Source: an uncultured Bacteroides sp.
GTDB taxonomy: Bacteria; Bacteroidota; Bacteroidia; Bacteroidales; GCA-2748055
Assembly (NCBI GenBank): GCA_964453785.1
Contig: CAYVRK010000013.1
Span: 25,370 to 89,369, forward strand
DNA length: 64,000 nt
Reading direction: 5' to 3'
Part shown: piece by piece, positions 14,065 through 63,902 of the stretch
Layout: each line of letters opens with the position of its first letter
How positions within the stretch are numbered: position 1 is the first letter of the stretch
Notes under the pieces: generated by a model
What the model was told of the DNA's origin: nothing
Seen by the model: only the letters and a program-made list of their open reading frames with translations
Databases searched by the model: none
Program-made: the position numbers and the translations under genes

Positions 14065-14137
14065 AGGAAATTCAACCAGCCAAAGATAAGCAATTGTTGA
14101 AAATCTACTTTTTCTTTTCCAAACCTGCCGGTTAAAT

Positions 14138-15289: not shown

Positions 15290-15885
15290 ATCCCAATCTT
15301 TCCCAGAAAGCACAGCAGGACATGGAACTGGTGGAAAAAGCCAAGAAAGGTGACCAGCTTGCTTACGGAGAACTTCTTGGCCGCTACCGGGATGCCATCT
15401 ATTTCATGCTTCTTAAGATGGTAAACAGTCCGGTTGATGCGGAAGATCTTACCATAGAGGCCTTTGGTAAAGCCTTCAAAAACATCGATCAATACACTCC
15501 GAACTTTGCATTCTCAACCTGGCTTTTCAAAATAGCCACGAACAATTGTATAGATTTTATCAGAAAAAAGCGGGCAAGTCATGTTTCCCTGGACCAGACC
15601 ATGGATGGTGATGACTCCCTGACCCCCTCTGCTATGATACAATCTGACGTCCTGGATCCCGAATCATATTTGATCAACAAGCAGAAAATCAAGCATATGC
15701 ATAATGTAGTCTCCAGGCTTAAGCCGAGGTACAGGACGCTGGTTGAACTACGTTATTTCAAAGAGTATTCCTACGACGAGATCGCGGAAGAACTGGATAT
15801 TCCCATTGGCACTGTAAAAGCACAACTTTTCAGAGCCAGGGAACTGCTTCTGAATATCCTCAATAGGTCCAGGGAGAAGCCCTAA
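15280..15885 (+). CDS. ECF-type RNA polymerase sigma-70 family factor
   Basis: 201 aa. Region 2 reads YRDAIYFMLLKMVNSPVDAEDLTIEAFGKAF...STWLFKIATNNCIDFIRK. Region 4 reads EYSYDEIAEELDIPIGTVKAQLFRAR. The start ATG lies inside the GT2 stop context (ccATGGAGTTAA). Confidence 0.9.
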   Translation: MELNPNLSQKAQQDMELVEKAKKGDQLAYGELLGRYRDAIYFMLLKMVNSPVDAEDLTIEAFGKAFKNIDQYTPNFAFSTWLFKIATNNCIDFIRKKRASHVSLDQTMDGDDSLTPSAMIQSDVLDPESYLINKQKIKHMHNVVSRLKPRYRTLVELRYFKEYSYDEIAEELDIPIGTVKAQLFRARELLLNILNRSREKP

Positions 15886-15888
15886 TCC

Positions 15889-16506
15889 ATGGACCTGATC
15901 CGAAAATACTTCCCGGAGATTGATACGAAACAGTCCAGACAGTTTGAGAAACTCCTTGAGGTGATTCCCAATCTGAATCAAAAGGTAAATGTGATCTCCA
16001 GGAAAGATGTTGATTCCCTTGAAGAGAGACACATCCTGCATTCCTTATCCATTGCCAGGCAATTTACCTTCGAATCCCATCAGTCGATTATCGATGCGGG
16101 GACTGGCGGGGGATTCCCCGGCATTCCCCTGGCCATTCTTTTCCCGGAAACCGGTTTTACCCTGGTGGATTCAATAGGTAAAAAGATCAACCTGGTCAGG
16201 GAGGTAAGTGAAGTGCTTGAATTGAAAAATGTCCGACCGGTGCATGCACGGGTGGAAACACTGAACATCAGGGCTGATTTTGTGGTATCCAGGGCAGTAA
16301 CAGCTTTGCCCAGACTCTATCAATGGACCCGGAGACTGATCAAACCTGGCTCCAATGATGCCCGGAATGGCCTGATCGCCCTGAAAGGTGGCGCCCTAGA
16401 TCCGGAACTGACATCCTTTACGGGAAGGGTTGAATTGTATCCCATATCAAGGTGGTTTGAAGAGTCATTTTTTTCAACTAAAATGATTGTTTTTCTAAAA
16501 TATTAG
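15889..16506 (+). CDS. rsmG: 16S rRNA (guanine527-N7)-methyltransferase
   Basis: 205 aa. SAM motif IDAGTGGGFPGIPLAI with an overall GidB-like layout. Confidence 0.92.
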   Translation: MDLIRKYFPEIDTKQSRQFEKLLEVIPNLNQKVNVISRKDVDSLEERHILHSLSIARQFTFESHQSIIDAGTGGGFPGIPLAILFPETGFTLVDSIGKKINLVREVSEVLELKNVRPVHARVETLNIRADFVVSRAVTALPRLYQWTRRLIKPGSNDARNGLIALKGGALDPELTSFTGRVELYPISRWFEESFFSTKMIVFLKY

Positions 16507-16535
16507 CTACTTTTGCACCCTCAAAATAGATTGTC

Positions 16536-16694
16536 ATGAAAAGAACATTTCAGCCATCCAACAGGAAAAGGAAGAACAAACACGGGTTCAGGGAGCGGAT
16601 GGCAACGGCCAGTGGCCGCAGCATTATTTCCGGAAGGAGAAGGAAAGGTCGCAAGAAATTATCAGTTTCTGACGAACCCAGGCACAAAGCATAA
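16536..16694 (+). CDS. rpmH: 50S ribosomal protein L34
   Basis: Below the ORF-track size cutoff. My translation is [52 protein letters not shown], which carries the canonical L34 signature [16 protein letters not shown]. Confidence 0.93.
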
Positions 16695-16722
16695 CTGTTC
16701 TTCTGAAAAAGATACTTTGAAT

Positions 16723-16752
16723 AACTGACCGGTTTCCGGTTGGTTATTTTTT
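16723..16752 (+). terminator. Candidate intrinsic terminator after rpmH
   Basis: AACTGACCGG-TTT-CCGGTTGGTT followed by ATTTTTTT. The core stem is ACCGG/CCGGT, with flanking AAC/GTT. Confidence 0.55.
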
Positions 16753-16803
16753 TGTCCGGACTTTTGTGGAGAATTTGTAATTTGGCATCTGTTTTTATTC
16801 CCC

Positions 16804-21051: not shown

Positions 21052-21900
21052 ATGAAATCATCGGTCATGAATTTTTTAAAATTTCTCATCAGCAAACTAT
21101 TCTTCCGGCACCTGGGTCTTGCCCTTGCCATCTTGTTGATCCTCGTGCTGGCAGTGCTGGTTTGGCTCCGAATTTACACACACCATGGGAAAACCATTAT
21201 GGTACCTGACCTTGCCGGCCTTACGCTGGATGAGGTGGGAGATGTAACCTCATCAAGAACCCTCCGGTTTGAGATTGTCGATTCTGTATTTTCATCGGAA
21301 ATGCCCAGGGGAACTGTAGTCAAACAGAATCCCAAAGCCAGTTCCAGAGTAAAAAAGAACCGGAATATTTTCCTGACAATGAATGCTGTCAACCCGGAGA
21401 TGGTAACCATGCCCAAGCTGGTCGGGCTCTCCATCCGCCAGGCCAGGCTTGCTTTACAGAATGCCGGGCTGAAACTGGGAAACATCACCTACAAACCGGA
21501 TTATGCGGTTGACAATGTATTACAACAATTCCACCTTGACTCCGTTATTAATGAAGGAACCGAAATCAGGAAGGGAGAAGTGATCGACCTGGAGTTGGGA
21601 ATGGGACTGAGCAACGAGACCACAAGGATACCAGATCTGGTCGGACTGGGATTGGAGACAACCAGGGATATCATTGCTGATTATCACCTGAATATAGGGG
21701 CTATTACCTATGATAAATCGATGACTGATAAGAAAGATAGCGCCAAGACCTTTGTTTGGAGGCAATATCCTGAGTATGATGAACTTAAAAGGATTATTAA
21801 AGGAATGGAAGTGGATATTTGGCTAACCATCGATTCCACCCTTCTACCGGTAACCGACACCCTCCATTTGGGAGCGGATACAGAAATGGTGAATGAATAG
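21052..21900 (+). CDS. PASTA-domain protein: an N-terminal TM anchor plus three PASTA repeats, with no kinase or PBP domain
   Basis: 282 aa. The repeats begin MVPDLAGLTLDEV, MPKLVGLSIRQARLALQNAGLKLG and IPDLVGLGLETTRDIIADYHL. Confidence 0.85.
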   Translation: MKSSVMNFLKFLISKLFFRHLGLALAILLILVLAVLVWLRIYTHHGKTIMVPDLAGLTLDEVGDVTSSRTLRFEIVDSVFSSEMPRGTVVKQNPKASSRVKKNRNIFLTMNAVNPEMVTMPKLVGLSIRQARLALQNAGLKLGNITYKPDYAVDNVLQQFHLDSVINEGTEIRKGEVIDLELGMGLSNETTRIPDLVGLGLETTRDIIADYHLNIGAITYDKSMTDKKDSAKTFVWRQYPEYDELKRIIKGMEVDIWLTIDSTLLPVTDTLHLGADTEMVNE

Positions 21901-23764
21901 ATCTGCAAAGTATTTATCGGGAAGTATATTCTGTCTGGTCACATTGTCCGGATTATTTGCGCAGGAGGTGATTACTCCGCTGGCAGGGAATCCCCTGGCA
22001 GAGGCTTACCACAGCAAATTGAAGCGGGTAAAGAAATCAGCTGCAACGGCTGATACACTTGATCTTCCAATATTTGACGATTTTTCATCTGCTTCGGTTG
22101 AGCCCGACCAGGAGATATGGAGTGATGCCAGCGCTTTTGTAAATAACAATTACTGTGTGGATCCCGTAACCAATGGGGTTGCTACACTGGATGCCCTGGA
22201 TTTTAACGGAAGTGTCTATCCGGGAGCAACTTATGATCCCACAAGCTTTGTTGCAGATCACCTGACCAGTCATCCCATCCGGCTCAAATATCCGGCCGGG
22301 GACAGCATCTATCTCAGTTTCCTTTATCAGCCCCGCGGACTAGGAGACAAACCCGAAGAACAGGACTCACTGCTGGTGGACTTTTATAATCCTGTTGACA
22401 GTCTGTGGATCAATGTTTGGGGTATACCGGGCACCGATCTCCACCCTTTCCGCAATGTGATGATTCCCATTACCGGGGAAGAATTTTTGAACACCGGGTT
22501 CAGATTCAGGTTCAGAAACAGGGCAAGTTTTCCCAGGAACAACGACTATCCTGATAAAAGGGCCAACCTGGACCACTGGCATCTGGATTATATACGGTTG
22601 GATATCAATAGATATGCTGCTGATACCGTACTCCGTGATGTTGCTTTCAACAAACCTATTCAGGCTGCCCTGGTTGACCTCACTTCCTTACCTTGGGCCC
22701 ATTATATGGAGGCTTCTTTCACGATGCTGGAGCCCACCATTCCTGTCCATTACAGGAACAACGATACCATTTCAAGAAACGTGACCCGGTCGCTGGACAT
22801 CGAAGAACCATTCTATAATGAAACCTATTCTCCGGGAGCACCCACTGCACAGGATCTGCCTGCCATGAAAGATACCGTAGTGGAATTCGAATACATATAT
22901 CCCATTGACTATAACCGCGGGGATTCAGCCCTGGTCAGGTTTAAAGCATCTCTTCGAACCGATGAATTTGATCCCAAAGTGAATGATACGGTTGTACTCG
23001 ACCAGTGGTACAAAGACTACTACAGCTATGATGACGGCACCCCTGAAGCAGGCTACGGTTTAAGGGGACAGGGAACCCGCAGTGGCAATGTGGCCATGAA
23101 ATATTACGCATTCAAAGCTGATGAGCTGGGAGGCGTGGATATCAGTTTCAACCAGTTGCTCGATTCAGTGAACCTGAAATACTACTTTAAATTAATTGTA
23201 TGGGGAGACAATGCGGGAATACCCGGAATGGTGCTCTTTGAAGACGAGGATGACCATATCCCTGCATATACCAAACACTTCCCCGGATTTATCAGGTTCT
23301 ACTTTCAAGAACCGGTGAAAGTAGATGGAACCTTTTATGTGGGTTGGAGGCAGTACAATGAGTATATGCTGAATGTGGGACTGGACCTGAACAACAATCC
23401 CACTCCCCATGTCATGTTCTACAACTACCAGGGGATATGGGAAATATCCAATGCGCCGGGCGTAATACTTCTCAGGCCTTTCCTTTACGATGAATCAATG
23501 AGTGTGGAACCAAGCGGGAACTCAGGACATTTGCTGAATGTATATCCCAATCCCGCATCGGACCATGTCATCATCCGGATCCCGGGTACAGAACAGCCAG
23601 GTGAGTTGATCCTGGATCTCTATGATGCATCCGGGCGGCTGGCCGATCAAAGGATCATATACAACAACAGGCTGGATTTGAATGGACTCCCGGTCGGGAT
23701 ATACCATCTGAAAATTCAATCTAAAGAGGGCATCTTTTTTTCCAAACTTCTGATTAACCGTTAG
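21893..23764 (+). CDS. Secreted protein with a T9SS (Por) C-terminal sorting domain
   Basis: 623 aa. Signal peptide SIFCLVTLSGLFAQ. The C-terminal ~80 aa match the T9SS CTD pattern (LNVYPNPASDHVIIRIP...LDLYDASGRL...GLPVGIYHLKIQSKEGIFFSKLLINR). Confidence 0.85.
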   Translation: MNRSAKYLSGSIFCLVTLSGLFAQEVITPLAGNPLAEAYHSKLKRVKKSAATADTLDLPIFDDFSSASVEPDQEIWSDASAFVNNNYCVDPVTNGVATLDALDFNGSVYPGATYDPTSFVADHLTSHPIRLKYPAGDSIYLSFLYQPRGLGDKPEEQDSLLVDFYNPVDSLWINVWGIPGTDLHPFRNVMIPITGEEFLNTGFRFRFRNRASFPRNNDYPDKRANLDHWHLDYIRLDINRYAADTVLRDVAFNKPIQAALVDLTSLPWAHYMEASFTMLEPTIPVHYRNNDTISRNVTRSLDIEEPFYNETYSPGAPTAQDLPAMKDTVVEFEYIYPIDYNRGDSALVRFKASLRTDEFDPKVNDTVVLDQWYKDYYSYDDGTPEAGYGLRGQGTRSGNVAMKYYAFKADELGGVDISFNQLLDSVNLKYYFKLIVWGDNAGIPGMVLFEDEDDHIPAYTKHFPGFIRFYFQEPVKVDGTFYVGWRQYNEYMLNVGLDLNNNPTPHVMFYNYQGIWEISNAPGVILLRPFLYDESMSVEPSGNSGHLLNVYPNPASDHVIIRIPGTEQPGELILDLYDASGRLADQRIIYNNRLDLNGLPVGIYHLKIQSKEGIFFSKLLINR

Positions 23765-34719: not shown

Positions 34720-37716
34720 CTATTCCTCTCCGTTTCCAAGGTCAAACGGAAAAAGTTGCTCCCCCTCTCTGAACTGAATACCCCGCCGCTGTTCCTCAAA
34801 TTTAAAATCCAGGTTGATGATTTTGTTGTCTGTAAACTGGACTTTGTAGCTCCCCCGTTCCAGTCTGAAATTCTCACCAAAAACATTGTAGATACTAACC
34901 TCGTAGGATGTGGCGCGGGGCAAATCAAGAACGAATGTACCAAAACCACTCGACAGGGTAGAAAATGTCTCCCCGTTTTCACCCACTGCAGTCACCCTGA
35001 TACCCTGTGGTGAAACAGTCCCCTCATTGGAATTTGGATCTCTGTCAATGATAATCCTCCCTTTGATTTTATAACTCTCCACAAGAGGAAGATAGTGAAC
35101 CATATCATTGTTGATCTCGATGGTCTGATGATGTCCGTTCAGGAAATAGAGGTTCTCCAGGTTTGAAAGTGGTATAAGCGACAGGTCATAAACGCCATAA
35201 GGGATTCTCTCGTAAAAAATCTCCCCGCGCGGATCTGTAATCATACTAACCTCAACAAAGCCGCTTCTGCTTTCAACATTCTTATCAGGATCCCTGGAAA
35301 TTTGTACCAAAACGTTTGAAATTGGTTTTTCCTCTTCACTTTTAATCCCATCTCCATCCAGGTCGTTGAAACCTATGATGGTTAGATCACCATAACCCAT
35401 CCTGGGTTGTTGAATGTCAAAAGCTTTCCGGACACCAAGGAAAAGATTCACATCCCTGCTTGTCATCCTACCCACATCCACATCCCTTCTGCTTACCCTG
35501 TAAATATTGAAACTGCCATAAAAATCCCAGGTCTTGTGCACATGGATGTTCCCGGTGAGGTTGAAAAGAATGTTTTCCCTCATGGAAGGCATATAGTAGG
35601 AGTAATTCAAAAATGCACTCACGCGAAGAGTCTCTTTGAAGAAATAACGCTCGTAGTATGGCCGTATATGGAAGGCCTGATTCACCAGGGGAGTATTGTT
35701 TACCACCGAGCTGCGATAAACATCGGTTACATCGCCGGAGGTATAGTATGCATTCAACTTAAAAGCCTGATCATAATAGTTGATCCCGACGGTGTAGGTC
35801 CATTGCCAATCCATATTGGACGTTTCATTCACTTCAATACCCCTGTCATACCTGTAGAACATGGTATTGAAACTGGCGTGAGGAGAGATGCTCCGTCCGT
35901 TTTTTAACCTGAAAGAAACCGAACCCAAAATCCCTGGTTGGTAGTTGTAATAACCAGTTTGATAATCCCCGTTAATCACATACATCTTGCGTATGGTTCC
36001 TGAATATCTGGGTCCACCCTGATACACCACCCTGCCCCTGTGAACTGAGAACAGGATACGTGCGTTTTCATTCATGTTCACATTGGGTGGATAAAGGAAA
36101 TTATAGGGATACTTGGTGGAGGTATAATCACTCCGGTAGTACATGGTCTTAAGCAGGAGTTTTTCAGTGATTTTATAATTGCCTGAAAAATTGATCCTGT
36201 TGATCCCGCTGTTCCTGATATAGGTAAACAGGGTATTGGTATTATCAAAGTTGATCAGGAGCCGGTTTCCCCTGTATCTGTAAATGAACTGGTATGCGAA
36301 TCCCAGAACAGTGGTGTCATGTTCTGTGTAGCTGGAGGCTTTGAAGTTGCTCAGGGATGTGGCCGTCTGCAGATGAAAACTGTGTCTCTGATTTAACTGG
36401 TAGTTGCCTCCCAAATGCCATGTGGCATGACTGTACAACTGTTGGGTTGTGGTTTCAAGAGTGACACCCGTATTAACGCCTACATTGCCCAGGTATCCTC
36501 CATAACCTGCAAATCCTCCAATACTTCCGCCATATGGGTTTTGAATCACGTTGAGCAAAAACATGTTTCTGTCGTTGAGCTGGTGGGTGGCACTGATCCC
36601 TCTTCCGGTTAATGTGTGCAACTGTCCCGTACCCAGCCTGTCCCCGATCATTACCATTGTATTCTGATCCATATACCTGATTGAGTAACGCAGCTGCTGG
36701 TAAAGGTCAATCTCCCTGTTCATATCAGCATCGAAATAAAGGTTATAATAACCAAGTGAATAGTATAGTTCCTGGGTTCCGGGAAACAATACCTGGCCAA
36801 ACACCCTTGCCGACATTTTTTTTCTTTGCTGCGACAGCAGGTTATACACTGTAAGCTCAGCATTGAGCGGTGCATTATAAAAAGGCAGCGAGTTGATGAT
36901 TTCACTTTCCAACGGAGTTGCCCTGATTGAGCCGTACTTGGAAGTATTGGACGTGGAAGCGTGTATGTCCAGGGTCGCGGCCCTCCAATTGTTGTTCAGC
37001 GCTTTCTTTTCGGAATAGGAAAGATCATCCCTACGCTGAATCACCAATTTGATGGAAGTATCGGCATACGCGGGAAGGTCCACATAAAGGAAACTATCCG
37101 CCTGAATTTCACTTCGGAATTCCAACAAATCTCCCAGGTCCAGAGAAAGTTTCACCAGTTCATTGGAATTTCCTGAATTGGACAGAGATACATTTACCTC
37201 TCCATAAGGCTTGAAATCAGATATGTAAATCTGGTTTGTACCCAGCCTCATATCCCATTTTGACTTCCTTTGGATGGATACATATGAATTGGCATAGCTG
37301 TATAAATCCTTACCAAACAACTCAGCACCTATCACATATGAGACCCCACCAACGGTGTTTCCAGGAATGGAAACCCTGACAGGTATCATTTTATATCCAC
37401 CAGGTTCAAGATTCAGGGTATCAATTCCCATTCCAATCATGCGCCATGAATCCGGGCAATCAATTCGCACAATTCCGGAAATGCGATTCCTGCCATTATT
37501 CTTGATTTCCAGAACATTAAAATGTGATCCCGGTTTTTCCAACACCACCTCCGGTCGGAGGAATTGCATCGTAAGGAGGCTGTCCGGCGTGGATACTTGT
37601 GCAAGGGATAGTCCAGGCAGACACAACAAAGGAATCATCAGGCCCCACAGGACCATTCCGGGGACACCTTTCTTGGTGTATTTTCTGCCTTGATCCACCT
37701 TCATCATTCGGTACAA
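34720..37716 (-). CDS. Large secreted/outer-membrane protein: N-terminal Ig-like modules, a central Tyr/Asn/Gly-rich putative beta-barrel, and C-terminal beta-sandwich modules. Candidate usher-like component
   Basis: 998 aa. Signal peptide ...LLCLPGLSLAQV. N-terminal CARDB/NEW3-like segments (FNVLEIKNNGRNRISGIVRIDCP...LEPGGYKMIPVRVSIPGN; EVNVSLSNSGNSNELVKLSL). The central ~450 aa are rich in Y/N/G/T with alternating polarity. The C-terminus reads DLDGDGIKSEEEKPISNVLVQISRD...GVYDLSLIP (SdrD-B/CarboxypepD_reg-like). The start could be an internal Met. Confidence 0.75.
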   Translation of the reverse strand: MYRMMKVDQGRKYTKKGVPGMVLWGLMIPLLCLPGLSLAQVSTPDSLLTMQFLRPEVVLEKPGSHFNVLEIKNNGRNRISGIVRIDCPDSWRMIGMGIDTLNLEPGGYKMIPVRVSIPGNTVGGVSYVIGAELFGKDLYSYANSYVSIQRKSKWDMRLGTNQIYISDFKPYGEVNVSLSNSGNSNELVKLSLDLGDLLEFRSEIQADSFLYVDLPAYADTSIKLVIQRRDDLSYSEKKALNNNWRAATLDIHASTSNTSKYGSIRATPLESEIINSLPFYNAPLNAELTVYNLLSQQRKKMSARVFGQVLFPGTQELYYSLGYYNLYFDADMNREIDLYQQLRYSIRYMDQNTMVMIGDRLGTGQLHTLTGRGISATHQLNDRNMFLLNVIQNPYGGSIGGFAGYGGYLGNVGVNTGVTLETTTQQLYSHATWHLGGNYQLNQRHSFHLQTATSLSNFKASSYTEHDTTVLGFAYQFIYRYRGNRLLINFDNTNTLFTYIRNSGINRINFSGNYKITEKLLLKTMYYRSDYTSTKYPYNFLYPPNVNMNENARILFSVHRGRVVYQGGPRYSGTIRKMYVINGDYQTGYYNYQPGILGSVSFRLKNGRSISPHASFNTMFYRYDRGIEVNETSNMDWQWTYTVGINYYDQAFKLNAYYTSGDVTDVYRSSVVNNTPLVNQAFHIRPYYERYFFKETLRVSAFLNYSYYMPSMRENILFNLTGNIHVHKTWDFYGSFNIYRVSRRDVDVGRMTSRDVNLFLGVRKAFDIQQPRMGYGDLTIIGFNDLDGDGIKSEEEKPISNVLVQISRDPDKNVESRSGFVEVSMITDPRGEIFYERIPYGVYDLSLIPLSNLENLYFLNGHHQTIEINNDMVHYLPLVESYKIKGRIIIDRDPNSNEGTVSPQGIRVTAVGENGETFSTLSSGFGTFVLDLPRATSYEVSIYNVFGENFRLERGSYKVQFTDNKIINLDFKFEEQRRGIQFREGEQLFPFDLGNGEE

Positions 37717-55816: not shown

Positions 55817-58687
55817 ATGAAAAAAGACAGTTTTAGCCAACGTCACCTTGGCCCCCGCCAGCCGGAAATCGATGAGATGCTTGAGAAAATCGGCGTCAGT
55901 TCACTGGATGAACTTGTAAAAAAAACCATTCCTTCCTCCATCTTCAAGCAACAATCGCTGAACCTTCCTGAAGGAATCGATGAGCATGCATACTTGCAGA
56001 AAATGCGTGAGATTGCGGGTAAAAATAAGATGTTCAATTCATATATTGGGCTTGGATATTACAACACCAACCTCCCGTCTGTCATACAGCGCAATATCCT
56101 GGAAAATCCCAACTGGTATACTTCATATACTCCTTATCAGGCTGAGATCTCACAGGGCAGGCTGGAGGCCCTGCTGAATTTCCAGACCATGATCATGGAC
56201 CTAACCGGGATGGAAATTGCCAATGCATCACTCCTGGATGAAGCTACGGCTGCTGCTGAAGCCATGATCATGTTGTTCAATGCCCGGTCAAGGGCTGCTG
56301 TGAAGGAAGGGAAAAACAGGTTTTTCGTGGATGAGAACATCTTTCCCCAGACAAAATCCGTATTGATAACCAGGTCCGGGCCCCTTGGAATTGAGCTCTC
56401 ATTTGGGGCCTATTCGGATGTCTCCCTGGATGATTCCCTGTTTGGATGCTTTATCCAGTATCCCGCCGCAGACGGTGCCATCAGAGATTATGCCGGATTC
56501 ACCAGCGCTGCCCACGAAAAGGATATTGCCGTTGCTGTAGCTGCGGATCCCATGAGCCTTGTGCTGATCACTCCTCCCGGTGAATGGGGTGCGGATGTGG
56601 TGGTGGGGTCTACCCAGCGTTTCGGGATACCCATGTTCTACGGCGGACCGCATGCGGCCTATTTTGCCACCGGGGAGGACTATAAAAGGCATTTGCCCGG
56701 CAGGATCATCGGCATTTCCATCGATGTGAATGATAGACCTGCTCTCAGGATGGCATTGCAAACCAGGGAACAGCATATTAAAAGGGAGCGGGCCACATCC
56801 AATATCTGCACGGCCCAGGCACTGCTGGCCAGCATGGCAGGGATGTATGGTCTGTACCATGGTCCCGAAGGTTTACAGCGGATCGCTTCCAATATCCACA
56901 CCGGAGCTGCCTACCTGGCTGCACAATTAAAGGGCTTGGAATACAAAGTGGTTCATGAAGATTTCTTTGATACCCTGCTGATCCAACTGCCCTCGGGCAT
57001 GTCCCATGAAACCATCCGGGAACTCGCTACTGAAAAGGAGATCAACTTCTACTACCCGGCTGAGAATCTGATCCAAATGTCCACCGATGAAACAACATAT
57101 GAAGAGAGGCTCAATGAGATTGTCGAGATATTCGCTTTTGCAGTGAAAAAGGCTGTGCATTTCAAGGAAACACTGGAGCCAACTGAGGCTTTTGCTCCCT
57201 CATTTAAAAGGCAGTCACCCATTCTTGAACAGGAGATCTTTAACAAATACCGCTCGGAAACAGACCTGATGCGGTACATCAGGATGCTGGAGCGAAAAGA
57301 CATCTCACTGACCCAGTCCATGATCTCTCTGGGCTCTTGCACCATGAAGCTGAATGCGGCCACCCAGCTCATGCCTGTGAGCTGGCCTGAGTTTTCCACC
57401 ATTCACCCTTTTGTGCCCATTGAACAGACCGAAGGATTCCACCAGCTGATCAATGAACTGGAATCCGCTTTGAAGGAGATCACCGGTTTTGATACCATCT
57501 CCTTCCAGCCCAATTCGGGCGCTTCAGGGGAATATGCCGGATTGATGGTGATCCAGGCCTATCACCGGGATCGTGGTGAAGCCCACCGGAACATCGTTCT
57601 GATCCCGGCTTCGGCTCACGGGACCAATCCGGCCAGCGCAGTGATGGCCGGACTGCAGGTCAAAGTGGTCGATTGCGATGAATTCGGAAACATTGATTCA
57701 CGGCACCTGAAAGAGCTGGCAGAGACACACAAAGAAGAGCTCTCTTCGATCATGATTACCTATCCCTCCACCCATGGTGTATTTGAAGACAACATCCGTG
57801 ACATCATCAATATGGTGCATGAGAACGGGGGCCAGGTCTATATGGACGGGGCCAACATGAATGCACAGGTGGGCCTCACCAGTCCGGCCTACATCGGTGC
57901 GGATGTCTGCCACCTGAACCTGCATAAAACCTTTGCCATTCCCCATGGAGGAGGAGGGCCGGGTGTAGGTCCCATTGGTGTGGCCAGCCACCTGGTGGAA
58001 TTCCTGCCAACCCATCCTCTGGTGGCAACCGGAGGGATCAAAGGTATCGATGCTGTGGCTGCAGCTCCCTATGGCAGCGCCGGAATCCTGGGTATTTCCC
58101 ACGCGTATATCCAAATGCTCGGTGGAAAAGGCCTTACGGAAGCCACCCGCATTGCCATCCTGAACGCCAACTACGTAGCGGCATCACTGAAGGATCATTA
58201 TGACATCCTCTACAAAGGGAGCGAAGGTTTTGTGGCCCATGAAATGATTCTGGATTGCAGGAAATTCAAGACACTTGCTGACATCACAGAGGCCGACATT
58301 GCAAAAAGGCTGATGGATTACGGCTTCCACGCCCCTACCCTTTCCTTCCCTGTGCACGGTACCCTGATGATGGAACCCACCGAGAGTGAATCCAAGGCTG
58401 AACTGGACCGGTTTATCCAGGCCATGATAGACATACACAACGATATTATGGAGATTGCCGATGGAAAGCAGGAGGTGGAGGAGAGTGTACTCCGCAATGC
58501 CCCGCATACAGCAGAGATACTCCTTTCAGAAAACTGGGATAAGCGCTATTCCCGTGAAAAAGCAGCCTTCCCCCTTCCCTGGGTAAAGGAAAACAAATTC
58601 TGGCCAACGGTAAGCCGCATTAATGACGGATACGGAGACCGGAACCTGGTCTGCTCATGCGAACCCCTGGAGGCCTACCGGGATTGA
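55817..58687 (+). CDS. gcvP: Glycine dehydrogenase (aminomethyl-transferring), single-chain P protein
   Basis: The ATG at 55817 (MKKDSFSQRHLGP) is the likely start. Motifs are YTPYQAEISQGRLEALLNFQ and the PLP-lysine region CHLNLHKTF. 956 aa. Confidence 0.96.
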   Translation: MKKDSFSQRHLGPRQPEIDEMLEKIGVSSLDELVKKTIPSSIFKQQSLNLPEGIDEHAYLQKMREIAGKNKMFNSYIGLGYYNTNLPSVIQRNILENPNWYTSYTPYQAEISQGRLEALLNFQTMIMDLTGMEIANASLLDEATAAAEAMIMLFNARSRAAVKEGKNRFFVDENIFPQTKSVLITRSGPLGIELSFGAYSDVSLDDSLFGCFIQYPAADGAIRDYAGFTSAAHEKDIAVAVAADPMSLVLITPPGEWGADVVVGSTQRFGIPMFYGGPHAAYFATGEDYKRHLPGRIIGISIDVNDRPALRMALQTREQHIKRERATSNICTAQALLASMAGMYGLYHGPEGLQRIASNIHTGAAYLAAQLKGLEYKVVHEDFFDTLLIQLPSGMSHETIRELATEKEINFYYPAENLIQMSTDETTYEERLNEIVEIFAFAVKKAVHFKETLEPTEAFAPSFKRQSPILEQEIFNKYRSETDLMRYIRMLERKDISLTQSMISLGSCTMKLNAATQLMPVSWPEFSTIHPFVPIEQTEGFHQLINELESALKEITGFDTISFQPNSGASGEYAGLMVIQAYHRDRGEAHRNIVLIPASAHGTNPASAVMAGLQVKVVDCDEFGNIDSRHLKELAETHKEELSSIMITYPSTHGVFEDNIRDIINMVHENGGQVYMDGANMNAQVGLTSPAYIGADVCHLNLHKTFAIPHGGGGPGVGPIGVASHLVEFLPTHPLVATGGIKGIDAVAAAPYGSAGILGISHAYIQMLGGKGLTEATRIAILNANYVAASLKDHYDILYKGSEGFVAHEMILDCRKFKTLADITEADIAKRLMDYGFHAPTLSFPVHGTLMMEPTESESKAELDRFIQAMIDIHNDIMEIADGKQEVEESVLRNAPHTAEILLSENWDKRYSREKAAFPLPWVKENKFWPTVSRINDGYGDRNLVCSCEPLEAYRD

Positions 58688-58688
58688 C

Positions 58689-59150
58689 CTAGAGGAGTTT
58701 TTGGAGTACCGGTTTCAATCCCTCACTCAGAACCTGGGATGCATATACTTTACAATCCCTGCAATTCTCGTTTTTACAAATATTCCCTTTTTCAGAGGCT
58801 TCCCAGCATGGCTGGAAGCTCTCTTTATAAGCATCACAGGAAATTCTGTCACTTTCTGAACACTTTCGGATGGCCCAGCACGGAACAACTGCCATCAGCG
58901 TTCGGAGACCCGCAAAATTAAGTCCGTGATCACGTATCAAAACCTGTATTGACTTTAGTCTTTTAATGTCGTTCTGAGAAAAAAGGTGTCGACCCGACTT
59001 AAGCTTATAGGGAATAATCAGCCCCATGTCGATATATTGCCGGATGGAGTGGGAGGGGATTTCAGAGAGCTGGGAGGCCACGCCCAATGTATAAACCGGC
59101 CTGTTGCTTTTCAGTATACCGGTGTCTCCTGTGGGTGCTATTGAATTCAT
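58689..59150 (-). CDS. MerR-family transcriptional regulator with a Cys-rich C-terminal domain
   Basis: The ATG at 59150 gives MNSIAPTGDT... MerR HTH: VYTLGVASQLSEIPSHSIRQYIDMGLIIPYKLKSGRHLFSQNDIKRL. C-terminus with 7 Cys: CWAIRKCSESDRISCDAYKESFQPCWEASEKGNICKNENCRDC. Transcribed divergently from the cytochrome operon. Confidence 0.8.
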   Translation of the reverse strand: MNSIAPTGDTGILKSNRPVYTLGVASQLSEIPSHSIRQYIDMGLIIPYKLKSGRHLFSQNDIKRLKSIQVLIRDHGLNFAGLRTLMAVVPCWAIRKCSESDRISCDAYKESFQPCWEASEKGNICKNENCRDCKVYASQVLSEGLKPVLQKLL

Positions 59151-59183
59151 TATTCTTATTTGGTATAATTCTAAATAGATTGA

Positions 59184-59201
59184 TATAGAAACACTTCTAT
59201 A
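59184..59201. promoter_or_regulatory. Perfect 18-bp palindrome in the MerR/cytochrome divergent spacer, a candidate operator
   Basis: TATAGAA-acac-TTCTATA, lying 34 nt from the MerR-like start and 79 nt from the cytochrome start. Confidence 0.4.
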
Positions 59202-59279
59202 CTGCAAAGATAATGATTGTCCTGTTTTTTCTGTATCATTATTCACTTATTTTATGTATTATTTAATGCAGTTTATATC

Positions 59280-59735
59280 ATGCCTTCGCAACTGAAAAGA
59301 CTCATTCCCCTGTTCATCATCTTTATCGGGTTGTTTCTCGTGGTCAGGCATTTCCTTATTCCGGAATCATTTGGACAGTACGGATATTATCGAGGTAATT
59401 CGTTGCAGGAAATTGCTTCAAAAGAGGCAGTCTATGCGGATAAGGAGGACTGTATTGCCTGTCACGATGATATATGGGAGAAACTGGAAGGTGAGATGCA
59501 TGCCGGCCTCTCCTGCCTGGTCTGTCATGGACCTGGGAGTGTACATGTGGAGGATCCACAGCCGGATAACATTGTTAAAGAAAGCGGCAGGGCATTTTGC
59601 GGCCGGTGCCATGACATCAATACCTCAAGACCCTCAGATGTTGTTTTTCAAATTGATCTACATACACATCACACCGAGAAATCGAATTGTATAGAGTGTC
59701 ATAATCCACATGCATTATGGGAGGGAATGGAATGA
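59280..59735 (+). CDS. Membrane-anchored tetraheme c-type cytochrome (cytochrome c3/NrfB-like)
   Basis: The ATG at 59280 gives MPSQLKRLIPLFIIFIGLFLVV (N-terminal TM anchor). Four CxxCH sites: CIACH, CLVCH, CGRCH and CIECH. 151 aa. Confidence 0.85.
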   Translation: MPSQLKRLIPLFIIFIGLFLVVRHFLIPESFGQYGYYRGNSLQEIASKEAVYADKEDCIACHDDIWEKLEGEMHAGLSCLVCHGPGSVHVEDPQPDNIVKESGRAFCGRCHDINTSRPSDVVFQIDLHTHHTEKSNCIECHNPHALWEGME

Positions 59736-60484
59736 ATTCATCGCGAAGAAAATTCATAAAAGCTTCCGCTACTACAGCAGGAGCGTTGCTTCTTACCTCT
59801 GTAACCAGGCCATTTCAAGTGCTTCTCATGGCATCAGACCCTCCTCCCGAAGATGGCCCCTGGTGGGGAATTGGCATAGACATCAGCCTTTGTATCGGTT
59901 GCGGGCTCTGTGCCAGGGGTTGTAAAACAGAGAACCATGTGCCGGAGGAACCTTTCTATTTCCGCACCTGGGTTGAACAGTATACCGTATTAAACAATGG
60001 GGAGGTAAAAATTGAATCCCCGAACGGGGGGATTGATGGGTTTAAACAATCTGCCCCTGAGGAGGAGATTTTTAAAACCTTCTTTGTACCCAAGATGTGC
60101 AACCATTGCGCCAAATCACCCTGCACACAGGTTTGCCCGGTGGGAGCAACTTATGAAAGCCCGGATGGAATCGCTCTCGTGGACCAGGAGTATTGCATTG
60201 GCTGCGGCTATTGCATCCAGGCCTGTCCATATGGATGCCGCTATTTACATCCCGTAAAGAAAGTGGCTGATAAATGCACATTATGCTACCATCGCCTGGC
60301 AAAAGGTCTCGCTCCTGTCTGTATGGAAGTTTGTCCCACCAAGGCCAGAATATATGGGAATCTCAGGGACCGGGAAAGTGACCTTGTAAAATTCCTGCGG
60401 GAACATAACTATCAGGTATTAAAACCACATTTGAATACCGGTTCGAAACTGTTTTATAATGCCCTCACTGCTGAAGTAAGTTGA
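59732..60484 (+). CDS. Tat-exported 4x[4Fe-4S] ferredoxin-type subunit (NrfC/PsrB/HybA family)
   Basis: Twin-arginine signal MNSSRRKFIKASATTAGALLL. Four Cys clusters: CIGCGLCARGC, CNHCAKSPCTQVCP, CIGCGYCIQACP and CTLCYHR...CMEVCP. The ATG at 59732 overlaps the cytochrome stop (ATGA). An ATG at 59717 is an alternative start. Confidence 0.9.
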   Translation: MNSSRRKFIKASATTAGALLLTSVTRPFQVLLMASDPPPEDGPWWGIGIDISLCIGCGLCARGCKTENHVPEEPFYFRTWVEQYTVLNNGEVKIESPNGGIDGFKQSAPEEEIFKTFFVPKMCNHCAKSPCTQVCPVGATYESPDGIALVDQEYCIGCGYCIQACPYGCRYLHPVKKVADKCTLCYHRLAKGLAPVCMEVCPTKARIYGNLRDRESDLVKFLREHNYQVLKPHLNTGSKLFYNALTAEVS

Positions 60485-60485
60485 A

Positions 60486-61679
60486 ATGGTAGATCATACA
60501 CAACATCTTTACGAAATGCTGTCCATGGTGGATGGTTATATCTACCCCAACGAGATATCGCTTCAATGGGGTATTCTCATTGTCCTGTATCCCTATATCA
60601 CGGGCTTGGTCGCAGGCGCATTTATTCTGGCATCCCTTGAAAGGGTATTCAAGATCAAAGTCCTGGGACCCACCTACCAACTGGCACTTGTCACAGCCCT
60701 TGCATTTCTGATTTGTGCTCCCCTTCCCCTGATCTCCCATCTTGGGCACCCCGGAAGAGCCTATGAAATTATGATCACCCCCCATGGAAAATCGGCCATG
60801 GCTATCTTCGGATTTGTCTACCTCTGGTACCTGATGGTTGTGCTATTGCTGGAGATATGGTTCGATTACCGGCGCGATTTTGTGATATGGTCAAAGGAGA
60901 AAAAAGGGATCATGCGTATGGTATACAGAATTCTGAGTTTGGGAGTAAATGACATTTCACCAAAAGCCGTAAAGTGGGATGAAAGGCTTGGCTATATCAT
61001 CACTGTCATCGGCATTCCATCAGCCTTTCTTCTTCACGGTTACGTGGGTTTCATCTTTGGTTCCATCAAAGCAAATCCATGGTGGTCCACTGTGCTTATG
61101 CCTGTCATTTTCCTTTTCTCTGCCATGGTATCCGGAATAGCGCTGGTCATGGTGCTGTACATGATCGTCTCATGGATCCGCAAAGTCAAAATCGATATGG
61201 CATGCCTTGACATGGTGGCCAAATACCTGCTTTATATGCTCATCCTCGATTTCTCACTGGAATCGCTGGACCAGGTACACCGGATTTATGAAGCAGAGGA
61301 ATCATTTGACATATTACATATGCTTGTGAATGGCAAATTGTTCATTACCCTGTTTGGATTGCAGATCACACTGGGCATGGTTATTCCAATGGTCAGCATT
61401 GGTACGCTGCAGATCATAAAAGTCAGAGAGCAGGTGCGAAGGCCCATCTACATTGCAACGGGTCTGATGGTACTGGTAGGCATTTTCTTCATGCGTTGGA
61501 ACGTGGTTATCGGAGGCCAGCTATTTTCCAAAGGATTTCATGGATTTACCAGCTTCAAACTGGGCCTGGTGGGTTCGGAAGGCTTATTTATGGCCATAGT
61601 CTGGATAATCCTCCCTTTCCTGATTCTGGCATTTTTAATATGGTTGTTGCCTCCCTGGAAAAAGCAGGAACAACTCTGA
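60486..61679 (+). CDS. NrfD/PsrC-family integral membrane quinone-interacting subunit
   Basis: 397 aa with about 10 TM helices. The gene starts 1 nt after the FeS subunit stop. The NrfD-like N-terminus is WGILIVLYPYITGLVAGAFILASL. Confidence 0.85.
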   Translation: MVDHTQHLYEMLSMVDGYIYPNEISLQWGILIVLYPYITGLVAGAFILASLERVFKIKVLGPTYQLALVTALAFLICAPLPLISHLGHPGRAYEIMITPHGKSAMAIFGFVYLWYLMVVLLLEIWFDYRRDFVIWSKEKKGIMRMVYRILSLGVNDISPKAVKWDERLGYIITVIGIPSAFLLHGYVGFIFGSIKANPWWSTVLMPVIFLFSAMVSGIALVMVLYMIVSWIRKVKIDMACLDMVAKYLLYMLILDFSLESLDQVHRIYEAEESFDILHMLVNGKLFITLFGLQITLGMVIPMVSIGTLQIIKVREQVRRPIYIATGLMVLVGIFFMRWNVVIGGQLFSKGFHGFTSFKLGLVGSEGLFMAIVWIILPFLILAFLIWLLPPWKKQEQL

Positions 61680-61692
61680 ATCTTAAGCAGAT

Positions 61693-63360
61693 ATGATGAA
61701 AGAAAGTAATCGTCCCGATAATGAAGAAATCGTTCATCTGAAACAAAGGATCGCAGATCTTGAAAGTCGCATGTCCCGGATTGAACAAGATGTGACTGAT
61801 CCGGTCTTTTACAGATTAGGCAGATCTCATACCCAACAAACCGTAACGAACGAATCAGGTCTCGGGAAAGCCACAATCCATGACGATGTCATAGAATCTC
61901 GAATCGGCGAATATGGCATGGCATGGCTGGGGAATATTGTCCTTCTTTTTGGCATTCTTTTTCTGTCGCAATTTTTACAGAAAAACAACCAGGAGATCAT
62001 CTCCCTTATTTTTGGACTTGTTTCTATTGCAGTGGTATACCTGATTGGATATTATACCCGTAGATCCCTCCCTTATATGTCCAGGCTTTTCAGCTACAAC
62101 GGCCATCTCCTTCTGTTTATACAAGCTTTGAGAATCTGTATGTTCCAGGGAAGTAAAGTCATAGACAGTCCCGTCCTTGGACATGCGGTAGTCCTTTTGG
62201 TCCTCATTTCCTTGATATATATGGCTTACAGGAACAACTCCCATGTGCTGGCTGTCATTGTATGGCTGATGGTGGTTATTGCGGCCATTGCCAGTGGATC
62301 CACCCATTTCATGCTTCCCCTGATGGTTGGCATAACCGGATCTGCCATATTATTTGCCATCAGGAAAGGCTGGTGGACTGGCTTGATCATCTCTATTTTC
62401 CTTGTCTATTTCATATACCTGAACTGGATCCTGGGCAATCCGTTTATGAGCAAGTCATTTAAATTCATCTCCATCCATCAGTTGGGTTATGTGTATTTAT
62501 TTGCCTGCGCGCTCGCATATTCCCTCCTGGCACTTCTACCCGACTCGGAAAACCTTCCCAAAAATGCACTCAATCAAACCATCATTCTGAACGGACTTGG
62601 TTTTTCTTTCATTTTCACGCTGTCGGTCCTTGCCTTTTTTACCGAAAACTACTTTATCTACTTTGGCATCATTGCCGCCTTTTGCATTGGGTTCTCCATC
62701 TGGCTGCAACTGCGCGGAATCTGGAAATCAATAGCGGCCTTGTACGCCATCTACAGTTTTGTTTCATTGAGTATAACCATTGCCGGAATCTATCAATTCC
62801 CCCTGGCTTTTCTCCTGCTCTCCATCCAGAGTCTTCTGGTAGTCATCGTGGCTTTATGGTTCCGTTCGAGGTTTATGGTGATCATGAATACCATTCTGTT
62901 CATTGGCTTGTTGATCACCTACCTTGCTTCCGCCGAAATCCTGGATACCATCAACTTTTCATTCGCTCTTGTGGCGCTTGTTACAGCAAGAATTCTGAAT
63001 TGGAGAAAGCAACGGCTGGAGATACGTACCGAGCTGATCCGGAACATATTTCTGTTCGCCGGCGCTGTTATGGTCCTTTTCAGCCTTCAAAAGGCAGTAC
63101 CACCACACTTTGTTACCCTATCCTGGACTCTTGCTGCCATGCTATTCTTTTTACTCAGCATTGTTCTCGGAAACATGAAATACCGATGGCTCGCCATTAT
63201 TACCGTGATGATCACCGTATTTTACCTTTTCATTGTTGACCTCAGCAACATCAGTCTCGGCTACCGCATAGTCGCACTGATGTTCATATCCGCCATTTCA
63301 CTGGGTATCTCAATTTTCTATTCCAGGCGCCAGAAGGAGAGGGAAGAAGACCAGACCTGA
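61693..63360 (+). CDS. DUF2339-like polytopic membrane protein with an N-terminal coiled-coil
   Basis: 555 aa. The N-terminus is EEIVHLKQRIADLESRMSRIEQDV, followed by about 16 closely spaced TM helices. Confidence 0.7.
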   Translation: MMKESNRPDNEEIVHLKQRIADLESRMSRIEQDVTDPVFYRLGRSHTQQTVTNESGLGKATIHDDVIESRIGEYGMAWLGNIVLLFGILFLSQFLQKNNQEIISLIFGLVSIAVVYLIGYYTRRSLPYMSRLFSYNGHLLLFIQALRICMFQGSKVIDSPVLGHAVVLLVLISLIYMAYRNNSHVLAVIVWLMVVIAAIASGSTHFMLPLMVGITGSAILFAIRKGWWTGLIISIFLVYFIYLNWILGNPFMSKSFKFISIHQLGYVYLFACALAYSLLALLPDSENLPKNALNQTIILNGLGFSFIFTLSVLAFFTENYFIYFGIIAAFCIGFSIWLQLRGIWKSIAALYAIYSFVSLSITIAGIYQFPLAFLLLSIQSLLVVIVALWFRSRFMVIMNTILFIGLLITYLASAEILDTINFSFALVALVTARILNWRKQRLEIRTELIRNIFLFAGAVMVLFSLQKAVPPHFVTLSWTLAAMLFFLLSIVLGNMKYRWLAIITVMITVFYLFIVDLSNISLGYRIVALMFISAISLGISIFYSRRQKEREEDQT

Positions 63361-63364
63361 TCTT

Positions 63365-63721
63365 CTATTCACTGGTCTCCCCGTTGTTTCGGGGGGAAAG
63401 GAACAGGAAGTTATCACAGATAACTTCGGTGCTGTAGTGCTTGTTCCCCTCCTTGTCGTCCCAGGAATTGGTGGTGATCTTACCCTCCACATAAAGTGCA
63501 TCCCCCTTTTTCACATGGTTCTTCACAATCTCTGCTCCCTTGTTCCACACCACGATACGGTGCCACTCAGTTTTTGACACCTCCTCCCCCTCCTTGTTCC
63601 GGTAAAATTCATTGGTCGCCAGCGGAAAGTTGGCCACAAAAGCCTCCCCTTCCCGTTCTGAAACCCGTGGCTCATCACCCACATTTCCTACGAGTGTTAC
63701 CCTGTTTACTCCGTATTTCAT
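63365..63721 (-). CDS. ssb: Single-stranded DNA-binding protein (short form)
   Basis: 118 aa. OB-fold signature VNRVTLVGNVGDEPRV...TEWHRIVVWNKGAEIV. It lacks a long Gly-rich tail. Confidence 0.9.
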   Translation of the reverse strand: MKYGVNRVTLVGNVGDEPRVSEREGEAFVANFPLATNEFYRNKEGEEVSKTEWHRIVVWNKGAEIVKNHVKKGDALYVEGKITTNSWDDKEGNKHYSTEVICDNFLFLSPRNNGETSE

Positions 63722-63902
63722 AATGTTTAAGTTTTGGTTACAGGGGTTTATGTGATAAGTGGTGCTGAGATCGGTTATGCAACTTTTTGAAAATGCTTGC
63801 CCGATTGACTTAAGTACACATATTCAGTAATTTAGGAGAAACGACTCACCTCGCGAACTTAATCACTTGTTGTATGGTATACCTTAAATAAAACCAAATG
63901 CA

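Follow-up and report, generated by a model that had tools for sequence, protein, structure and literature searches.

A Cbc4-like cytochrome-NrfC-NrfD module of the Bacteroidota and a candidate operator for its putative cysteine-rich MerR-family regulator

Analysis of a 64,000-nucleotide (nt) stretch of DNA from an uncultured Bacteroides sp. (assembly GCA_964453785.1, contig CAYVRK010000013.1, positions 25,370 to 89,369; hereafter the window) outlined a compact gene cluster encoding a tetraheme cytochrome c (Cyt4), an NrfC/PsrB-type ferredoxin, an NrfD/PsrC-family membrane subunit and a DUF2339-like membrane protein, divergent from the gene for a MerR-family regulator with a cysteine-rich C-terminal domain (MerR-Cys). 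The triad of cytochrome, NrfC-like and NrfD-like genes is a conserved, self-contained unit of the Bacteroidota. With a probability of roughly 0.55, we read it as the core of a menaquinol:cytochrome c oxidoreductase resembling Cbc4 of Geobacter, with the DUF2339-like protein as an accessory component and, in the clade to which the window belongs, under the control of the MerR-Cys regulator.

A conserved module lacking a catalytic subunit

The window was scanned through its list of open reading frames (ORFs) and its raw sequence, and its proteins were searched against Pfam and NCBIfam models. Four tightly packed genes on the + strand encode Cyt4 (59280-59735, 151 amino acids (aa)), the ferredoxin (59732-60484, 250 aa), whose start overlaps the stop codon of the cytochrome gene (ATGA), the NrfD/PsrC-family subunit (60486-61679, 397 aa), which follows after a 1-nt gap, and the DUF2339-like membrane protein (61693-63360, 555 aa), preceded by a 13-nt gap. 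This arrangement had been described in a sequence-only reading of the same DNA, and both the ORF list and the sequence bear it out. The MerR-family gene lies on the - strand (58689-59150) and encodes 153 aa from its ATG, with a 185-aa GTG ORF as a longer alternative; it is separated from the cytochrome gene by a divergent control region of 129 base pairs (bp; 59151-59279) that is strongly conserved across the clade. The cluster is flanked by gcvP, which ends at 58687 on the + strand, and by ssb (63365-63721, - strand), and is therefore complete inside the window. No other ORF of the window presented more than one CxxCH-like motif in a plausible gene, and no other c-type cytochromes or redox enzymes were found in its 64 kilobases (kb).

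A genome scan with the NrfD-like protein of the window as query returned 80 loci, all of them in the Bacteroidota (Bacteroidales, Prolixibacteraceae/Mariniphaga, Lentimicrobiaceae and Flavobacteriaceae, e.g. Yeosuana, Gaetbulibacter and Lutibacter). Their neighbourhoods, spanning +/-8 kb per locus, were analyzed by comparing ORFs through tblastn and all-against-all clustering. The cytochrome-NrfC-NrfD triad was present in every related locus with sequence available (80/80), with identities of 67-91% for the NrfD-like subunit across Bacteroidota orders. Its flanks vary by lineage and consist of housekeeping genes, such as those for release factor 2, methylmalonyl-CoA mutase, RecX, RibD, ribosomal protein S16 and glutamyl-tRNA reductase. 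Many of the carriers are anaerobic Bacteroidales from sediment or fen, and aerobic Flavobacteriaceae are also represented. No recurrent molybdopterin, NrfA-like or other catalytic neighbour was detected among the 80 loci. The cluster had earlier been described as lacking a catalytic subunit, with the caution that one might normally be encoded just outside such clusters; the absence is confirmed in the window and extends to the related genome loci, around which no such subunit was found.

Cofactor motifs and family assignment of the three subunits

The earlier description of the cytochrome as a membrane-anchored protein with four CxxCH motifs is upheld by the presence of one N-terminal transmembrane helix (residues ~8-27), followed by a conserved linker (FG..GHYR) and by a heme domain that starts at residue 58 and contains the motifs CIACH, CLVCH, CGRCH and CIECH. 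All 69 Cyt4 homologues have the four CxxCH motifs unchanged; His74, His130 and His144 are kept in 99-100% of the sequences and His89 in 87%, making these residues candidate distal ligands for four bis-His hemes. Searches against Pfam matched c3/c7-type cytochrome models just over threshold, and the best sequence match in the PDB was multiheme cytochrome c552 (5ze8, E = 1e-8).

The N-terminus of the NrfC-like protein (MNSSRRKFIK) contains a twin-arginine motif (RRKF), and 16 Cys residues, invariant in 75 homologues, are distributed over four ferredoxin motifs. These features confirm a ferredoxin exported by twin-arginine translocation (Tat), as previously noted, and the invariant residues fit the predicted presence of four [4Fe-4S] clusters. 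The protein scores 83.5 bits with Pfam Fer4_11, and its closest solved relative is Thermus PsrB (2vpw_B, E = 4e-46). Because the ferredoxin has its own Tat signal, no molybdoenzyme is needed to carry it out, an argument that rests on the precedents of NrfC and HybA versus DmsB and PsrB.

The third subunit reaches 118.6 bits with the Pfam NrfD model (PF03916, cutoff 25.8), in agreement with its initial assignment as an NrfD/PsrC-type membrane protein. It contains about 9 helices and presumably holds the quinone/quinol site. No PDB relative was identified by sequence, even through a profile search at E <= 10. For fold comparisons, AlphaFold models served as Foldseek queries on PDB structures. 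The NrfD-like model was closest to ActC of alternative complex III (8k9e_C and 6btm_C, template-modelling score ~0.6), followed by ActF and then PsrC, with probability 1.0.

None of the NCBIfam equivalog cutoffs, including those of TtrB, DsrO, NrfC, QrcC, NrfD and DsrP, was reached by the proteins of the module. For the NrfC-like protein, the scores in bits versus the respective cutoffs were 186/416 for TtrB, 165.3/200 for DsrO, 156.8/377.6 for NrfC (TIGR03149), 132/450 for ArrB, 103/420 for HmcB, 100/214 for DmsB and 82/400 for QrcC; the NrfD-like subunit obtained 47.5/347.6 with NrfD (TIGR03148) and 32.3/350 with DsrP. Together with the lack of a recurrent catalytic gene, these scores support the view, already advanced from the letters of the sequence, that the module belongs with electron-conduit cores such as NrfBCD, DsrJOP or Nhc, and is not a complete reductase.

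Comparison with known quinol dehydrogenase systems

The closest named system appears to be Cbc4 of Geobacter sulfurreducens, which the sequence-only reading had missed. Cbc4 comprises CbcS, CbcT and CbcU (GSU0068-0070) and is regarded as a menaquinol:ferricytochrome c oxidoreductase. CbcS is a protein of 160 aa with an anchor (residues 1-29), a linker (30-58) and four predicted bis-His hemes, showing an apparent reduction potential of -139 mV; CbcT binds four [4Fe-4S] clusters, and the third protein, CbcU, is integral to the membrane. Compared by architecture and description, the Bacteroidota module presents the same gene order (cytochrome, ferredoxin, membrane subunit) and likewise lacks a catalytic subunit; Cyt4 has the anchor-linker-tetraheme layout of CbcS, with a linker of ~30 residues and its first CxxCH at residue 58, and a four-cluster ferredoxin is again paired with an integral membrane subunit. 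The two systems differ in that a fourth, DUF2339-like gene usually belongs to the Bacteroidota operon, which a single clade also provides with a divergent gene for a Cys-rich MerR protein, and in that CbcS has been assigned to the NapC/NirT family, whereas Cyt4 matches c3/c7-type models and no more than a fragment of NrfH.

The NrfBCD, MccCD and SirCD systems also resemble the module, in that a Tat-exported ferredoxin of the NrfC type and a heme-free subunit of the NrfD type convey electrons between quinol and periplasmic multiheme cytochromes. NrfB, however, is a soluble pentaheme protein, whereas Cyt4 is tetraheme and membrane-anchored, and the scores with the NrfC and NrfD models are below their cutoffs. 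No nrfA, mccA or sirA gene was found next to the module in the 80 loci, and the window contains no nrfA-like gene. DsrJOP resembles the module in combining, on the periplasmic side, a small multiheme cytochrome tethered to the membrane with NrfC-like (ferredoxin) and NrfD-like subunits; unlike DsrMKJOP, in which DsrJ is triheme, it has a tetraheme cytochrome, fails the DsrO and DsrP models and lacks flanking DsrMK-like genes. Alternative complex III, which like the module is common in the Bacteroidota, follows a similar logic of electron transfer (quinol to Fe-S to multiheme cytochrome), and its ActC is nearest to the NrfD-like model. The module nonetheless has no fused 1000-aa subunit of the ActB type, no second NrfD-like subunit (ActF) and neither ActD nor ActE; ActA is pentaheme, in contrast to the tetraheme Cyt4, and the module amounts to ~800 aa in three proteins. 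ActB chains align with the ferredoxin of the window only over their ferredoxin part.

A literature search returned no paper on this Bacteroidota module, and a review of the NrfD family includes no Bacteroidota cytochrome-NrfCD class, mentioning only 'NhcC in 2 Bacteroidetes'. Precedents for such a mechanism have been described: orphan NrfCD pairs in Melioribacter have been read as multifunctional quinol:cytochrome reductases, and SirCD can replace CymA in Shewanella.

These comparisons bear on the possibility of a split known reductase, for which the module would provide the quinol dehydrogenase while the catalytic subunit (NrfA nitrite reductase, a MccA/SirA-type sulfite reductase or a Psr/Ttr molybdoenzyme) is encoded elsewhere in the genome. 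NrfBCD, MccCD and SirCD work in this manner, the NrfC-like protein scores best with the TtrB, DsrO and NrfC models and is closest to PsrB among solved structures, and the survey of neighbours covered the +/-8 kb around each locus. We nevertheless regard a split reductase as unlikely. No catalytic neighbour recurs in the 80 loci, all equivalog scores are far under their cutoffs, and the cytochrome, tetraheme and anchored to the membrane, is unlike the soluble pentaheme NrfB. Furthermore, the occurrence of the module in both aerobic flavobacteria and anaerobic Bacteroidales argues against its dedication to one specific substrate.

A DUF2339-like membrane protein encoded downstream of the triad

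A hidden Markov model of the family of the 555-aa protein was used to detect its gene in the genome loci, 77 of which were informative. The gene is located directly downstream of the NrfD-like gene in 59 of them and is missing in the remaining 18, so that its co-conservation with the module, put forward earlier as a check, held for most informative loci. The DUF2339 label itself calls for some nuance. The protein of the window matches the Pfam model (PF10101) over its last 72 residues only, with a sub-threshold score of 16.3 bits (cutoff 33.6, E = 0.004), but 30 of 38 close relatives match it at E <= 0.01 (best 6.5e-9), and on that basis the protein is probably a remote relative of the DUF2339 family.

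The AlphaFold model of the 555-aa protein (predicted local distance difference test score (pLDDT) of 77) shows ~18 long helices after an N-terminal helix (residues 9-34) described as cytoplasmic; the previous estimate of about 16 transmembrane helices and an N-terminal coiled-coil was thus roughly right, if slightly low in its helix count. The matches that Foldseek returned from the PDB were helical-repeat noise (best E = 0.013, template-modelling score < 0.3) and included no structural relative; the fold therefore provides no functional lead, nor does it confirm the DUF2339 link. The residues conserved in the family are limited to W, R, N, Y and G, with no conserved His or Cys, which makes it unlikely that the protein carries a redox cofactor. 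The only characterised DUF2339 protein, Arc3A of Pseudomonas aeruginosa, has 35 transmembrane helices and prevents the accumulation of lysophospholipids. Both are polytopic membrane proteins without obvious catalytic residues, yet the 555-aa protein has only about half as many helices, is encoded in a respiratory operon and was not seen with an Arc3B-like partner.

The MerR-Cys regulator

The regulator encoded divergently from the module consists of a winged helix-turn-helix (HTH) domain of the GlnR/TnrA/HspR type (residues ~18-88) and a C-terminal domain of ~45 residues with seven Cys (PCW...C...C...PCW...C...C..C). The protein belongs to the MerR family, scoring 44.6 bits with Pfam MerR_1 (PF13411, cutoff 21.6), and its profile matches GlnR in the PDB (4r4e, E = 1e-14). 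The HspR model (NF047375) yields 53.3 bits, below its cutoff of 105, and no dnaK or clpB context was seen near MerR-Cys loci. Although its winged HTH is closest to those of GlnR/TnrA and HspR, the regulator ends in the seven-Cys domain and not in a glutamine-synthetase-binding tail or an HspR tail. An HTH of this type suggests repression at an inverted repeat, as opposed to the promoter distortion of classical MerR regulators.

The seven-Cys domain had been recognised in the sequence-only reading, with a spacing that was wrong by one in four of the gaps. The true spacing is C-x5-C-x7-C-x9-C-x9-C-x4-C-x2-C, and all seven Cys are invariant (7/7) in 20 regulator homologues. A SoxR-type [2Fe-2S] MerR protein was considered and rejected, given that the regulator has seven Cys, with another spacing, directly after the winged HTH; the SoxR motif is a C-terminal CI(G/Q)CGC-x5-C that follows a long dimerisation helix. 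It is plausible that the regulator uses its Cys-rich domain for sensing, and the term 'redox-regulated', earlier applied to the operon, is one that we infer.

The isolated Cys domain has no match in Pfam. Searched alone against 1.84 billion representatives, it returned 95 clusters at 50% identity, in almost all of which it is C-terminal to a MerR HTH, and at least 619 proteins belong to the MerR-Cys family at E <= 1e-3. Two sequences (P0430 and P0436) present other, rare fusions, in which the Cys domain is N-terminal to a response-regulator receiver domain or belongs to a protein with an OmpR-type winged HTH and a MerR HTH, suggesting a sensor module of a portable kind.

In the genome loci, the MerR-Cys gene adjoins the module only in the Bacteroidales clade of the window, which shares the gcvP synteny. 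The proposal that the MerR protein is a partner of the module hence holds in one clade but is not general, with many paralogues in unrelated contexts. A second survey, consisting of a metagenome scan anchored on the MerR-Cys regulator, identified the arrangement of the window in ~25 loci. In other loci, a second, paralogous and DsrOP-like kind of module (type B, as opposed to the type A of the window) is found between the MerR and DUF2339-like genes or after the latter (A-DUF-B, e.g. locus L161), and paralogues of the regulator are encoded directly downstream of an octaheme cytochrome with a sorting domain of the type IX secretion system (T9SS), or alone in unrelated contexts. In several loci (L161:6017-6976 and L162:5983-6951, and also L002, L006, L103, L105, L117 and L121), a gene for a TPR protein of ~320 aa, absent from the window, lies between gcvP and the MerR gene; this protein shows faint matches to the CcmH/CycH-type TPR family.

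A candidate operator at the head of the cytochrome operons

A candidate operator, TGTATTATTTAATGCA, was identified at 59255-59270 (core GTATTATTTAATGC, 59256-59269), 10 nt upstream of the cytochrome ATG. The clade consensus is (T)GTATTA-N2-TAATAC(A), from which the copy in the window departs by one mismatch, and the palindrome GTATTA-N2-TAATAC is located 10-12 nt before the cytochrome start codon across the clade. With its TGT-N10-ACA outline, it is similar in design to the TnrA/GlnR box, TGTNA-N7-TNACA. Allowing for <=1 mismatch, 45 sites were counted in 1.58 Mb of locus sequence. A fixed position beside a MerR-Cys gene accounts for 38 of these; two more are located ~50 nt upstream of an octaheme cytochrome-MerR operon, one is near a stand-alone paralogue and four are elsewhere. 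In a third octaheme locus, L123, the site reads GTACTA-AA-TAGTAC, a variant in which one change in each half preserves the symmetry.

Within operons the palindrome is confined to the head and does not recur ahead of a type-B module located downstream, and it is essentially absent near stand-alone 147-aa MerR-Cys paralogues. In the window alone it yields one match for 1.24 expected, which is not significant, and its weight therefore derives only from its position across loci. This comparative evidence is good, and the regulator is predicted to bind the palindrome and to control the cytochrome operons; the candidate operator would tie it to three kinds of them.

The alignment of 30 orthologous intergenic regions revealed blocks that are conserved with either type A (Cyt4) or type B (cyt11) modules downstream. 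A second element, TCTGTATCATTA (59230-59241), resembles a half-site ~21 bp upstream of the palindrome; almost all of the aligned regions share it in the form TCTGTAT[C/T]ATTA, and it is putatively functional. An inverted repeat, ATAATGAT-N17-ATCATTAT (59210-59242), was rejected as an operator, since it is not conserved in orthologous regions. No RNA family was identified with Rfam in positions 58600-63800, so that the conserved region between the genes does not correspond to any riboswitch or small RNA already described, and the counts returned by sigma-70 promoter and terminator scans, which are uninformative for the Bacteroidota, were at or near chance.

Type-B modules and octaheme cytochromes

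The type-B module encodes a lipoprotein tetraheme cytochrome (~195 aa), an NrfC-like protein of 308 aa and an NrfD-like protein of ~405 aa, and it either replaces type A in its slot or follows the DUF2339-like gene. It was observed in L109:2098-4819 (-) and L161:11828-14549 (+), as well as in L098, L104, L108, L110, L095, L101 and L117. With 408 bits, its NrfD-like subunit exceeds the cutoff of the NCBIfam DsrP equivalog (350), in Bacteroidales with no DsrMK nearby, and automatic annotation would consequently assign it to sulfate reduction. The DUF2339-like gene is also retained after this alternative module, with very short gaps, which argues for a functional tie between its product and such complexes.

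The octaheme cytochromes are proteins of ~520 aa with eight CxxCH motifs and a T9SS domain (Por_Secre_tail), encoded at L123:1854-3988, L126:2921-5096 and L138:4281-6420. Each gene is followed by a MerR-Cys paralogue on the same strand, with the palindrome or its variant ~50 nt upstream. In the Bacteroidota, the combination of an octaheme cytochrome and a T9SS domain predicts a cell-surface protein. A far-reaching but improbable extension of these observations is that MerR-Cys acts as the master switch of a Bacteroidales-specific regulon, in which inner-membrane quinol dehydrogenases of the Cbc4-like and DsrOP-like kinds and the DUF2339-like protein would feed cytochromes, T9SS-exported octaheme proteins of the cell surface among them, for extracellular electron transfer, with the seven-Cys domain as the (Fe-S or metal) sensor. 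A search of the literature on T9SS and extracellular electron transfer found nothing relevant.

Multiheme and monoheme cytochromes encoded next to the module

In five loci (L023, L032, L037 and L049, which are Lentimicrobiaceae-like, and L025), the module is surrounded by genes for multiheme cytochromes. In L025, the neighbouring stretch (11085-17135, - strand) encodes a 932-aa protein in which 19 CxxCH motifs are fused to a cytochrome b561 (Ni_hydr_CYTB) domain, together with a 202-aa membrane protein and heptaheme, pentaheme and c554-like tetraheme cytochromes, a layout reminiscent of the CbcL/ImcH-type inner-membrane cytochromes of Geobacter. The genes flanking the module in L023 (2163-4973, - strand), L032 and L037 encode hexaheme lipoproteins that have collagen-like G-x-x repeats at the N-terminus and also contain MtrC/MtrF-type domains. 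In these same Lentimicrobiaceae-like metagenome-assembled genomes, NapC/NirT-like hexaheme proteins of 499 aa are encoded downstream.

A different set of four genes, in one or two tandem copies, adjoins the module in L078 (9256-16500, - strand) and L038, from Yeosuana and Gaetbulibacter, and also in L074, L027, L045, L021 and L039. This Flavobacteriaceae set encodes an NrfC-like protein (327 aa), an NrfD-like protein (445 aa), a membrane-anchored protein of ~300 aa with no match in Pfam, and a monoheme cytochrome c (132 aa). The presence of these additional NrfC-NrfD proteins and of the monoheme cytochrome c points towards electron transfer linked to an oxidase.

Proposed function and its alternatives

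In the favoured reading, the core trio would form a Cbc4-like (NrfCD-type) complex in the inner membrane, joining the menaquinone pool with c-type cytochromes of the periplasm. Quinol or quinone would be bound by the NrfD-family subunit, the Tat-exported ferredoxin would relay electrons through its four [4Fe-4S] clusters, and the tethered tetraheme cytochrome, probably with four bis-His low-potential hemes, would provide the docking and exit point for periplasmic partners encoded elsewhere. Electrons would most likely flow from menaquinol oxidation to multiheme cytochromes or periplasmic reductases. The presence of multiheme neighbours, and of a regulator common to the module and to a T9SS-exported octaheme cytochrome, favours a role in feeding multiheme cytochrome networks. 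The DUF2339-like protein, presumably co-transcribed, would act as an accessory membrane partner or as a membrane-homeostasis factor, and not as a redox subunit. The divergent MerR-Cys protein, probably a dimer like GlnR and HspR, likely binds TGTATTA-N2-TAATACA and probably controls (represses) the operon in this clade, with its seven-Cys domain putatively sensing a redox, metal or Fe-S signal.

Several observations weigh against this reading. The likeness to Cbc4 rests on architecture, not on sequence comparison with GSU0068-0070, and the physiological role of Cbc4 is itself unassigned, the cbcS mutant having no phenotype. The model of the NrfD-like subunit is of only modest confidence (pLDDT 66), multiheme neighbours occur in only 5 of 80 loci and provide an indirect link, and no partner protein of the module was identified. 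As regards its control, the MerR gene is missing from most module-bearing loci, and many MerR-Cys paralogues are found in unrelated contexts without the palindrome. In locus L119 (5491-6420), where gcvP, MerR-Cys and ssb are contiguous, the whole cytochrome/NrfCD/DUF block is missing, implying that the regulator can persist without the module. Shared ancestry of the whole intergenic region may partly explain the conservation of the palindrome, for which the octaheme context alone is independent, and its location only 10 nt from the start codon is unusual for a classical MerR operator. The DUF2339-like gene is missing from all Flavobacteriaceae loci and from a few Bacteroidales lineages, and Arc3A, the one relative to have been characterised, functions in the control of lysophospholipids and not in respiration. 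Lastly, the sequence does not constrain the direction of electron flow, and Qrc and Nhc, of the same build, run in the opposite direction.

The last point raises the alternative that the module is a reductase of menaquinone, possibly electrogenic, similar to Qrc, Nhc and Hmc, that would take electrons from a periplasmic hydrogenase, a formate dehydrogenase or cytochromes. Its subunit logic is that of NhcABC and QrcBCD, low-potential bis-His hemes are to be expected from the precedent of CbcS, and many carriers are, as noted above, anaerobic sediment or fen Bacteroidales. Against such a reversal, no gene for a periplasmic hydrogenase, a formate dehydrogenase or a type I cytochrome c3 was found near any locus, the QrcC and QrcD models scored poorly or not at all, and the module is also carried by aerobic Flavobacteriaceae, making this direction doubtful.

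It is similarly improbable that the MerR gene, the DUF2339-like gene or both are mere neighbours of the triad, the regulator controlling another target or itself and the DUF2339-like protein being an unrelated membrane-homeostasis factor. The adjacency of the MerR gene in a single clade, its persistence in L119 and the scatter of the 147-aa paralogues are in line with this view, as are the absence of the DUF2339-like gene from 18 of the 77 informative loci, every Flavobacteriaceae locus among them, the lack of conserved His or Cys in its product and the action of Arc3A on lysophospholipids. The palindrome, however, is found at a fixed distance in 38 loci and again before the octaheme operon, the promoter region has been kept through the swap of modules, and the DUF2339-like gene follows both module types after very short gaps. 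The reading of the module as a Cbc4-like oxidoreductase core, with an accessory DUF2339-like protein and clade-specific MerR-Cys control, hence remains the one that we favour.

Other features of the window

Three further ORFs of the window are of note. The only domain recognised in a 623-aa protein encoded at 21893-23764 (+) is a C-terminal T9SS sorting domain, identifying the host as a T9SS-bearing member of the Bacteroidota. An apparent MurF-Alr fusion is encoded at 1040-3499 (-), where the middle domain of a Mur ligase is joined, in an ORF of 819 aa, to both the N-terminal and the C-terminal domain of alanine racemase. The 998-aa ORF located at 34720-37716 (-) has no Pfam match at E <= 1e-5.

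Significance

Cytochrome-NrfC-NrfD modules without a catalytic subunit, Cbc4 included, are the least understood points of entry into and exit from the quinone pool. The family described here is well bounded, and it occurs both in cultivable flavobacteria and in abundant Bacteroidales from sediment and fen. It offers several handles for study: a candidate regulator and operator, a natural swap of modules in which the regulator and the DUF2339-like gene are kept, and a putative regulatory link to a T9SS-exported octaheme cytochrome. If true, the proposed control by MerR-Cys would define a new Cys-rich sensor domain, and the DUF2339 family would gain a second functional context should its link to the module hold. 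Should the link to the octaheme cytochromes prove real, it would reveal how Bacteroidota that are fermentative or anaerobic get rid of electrons.

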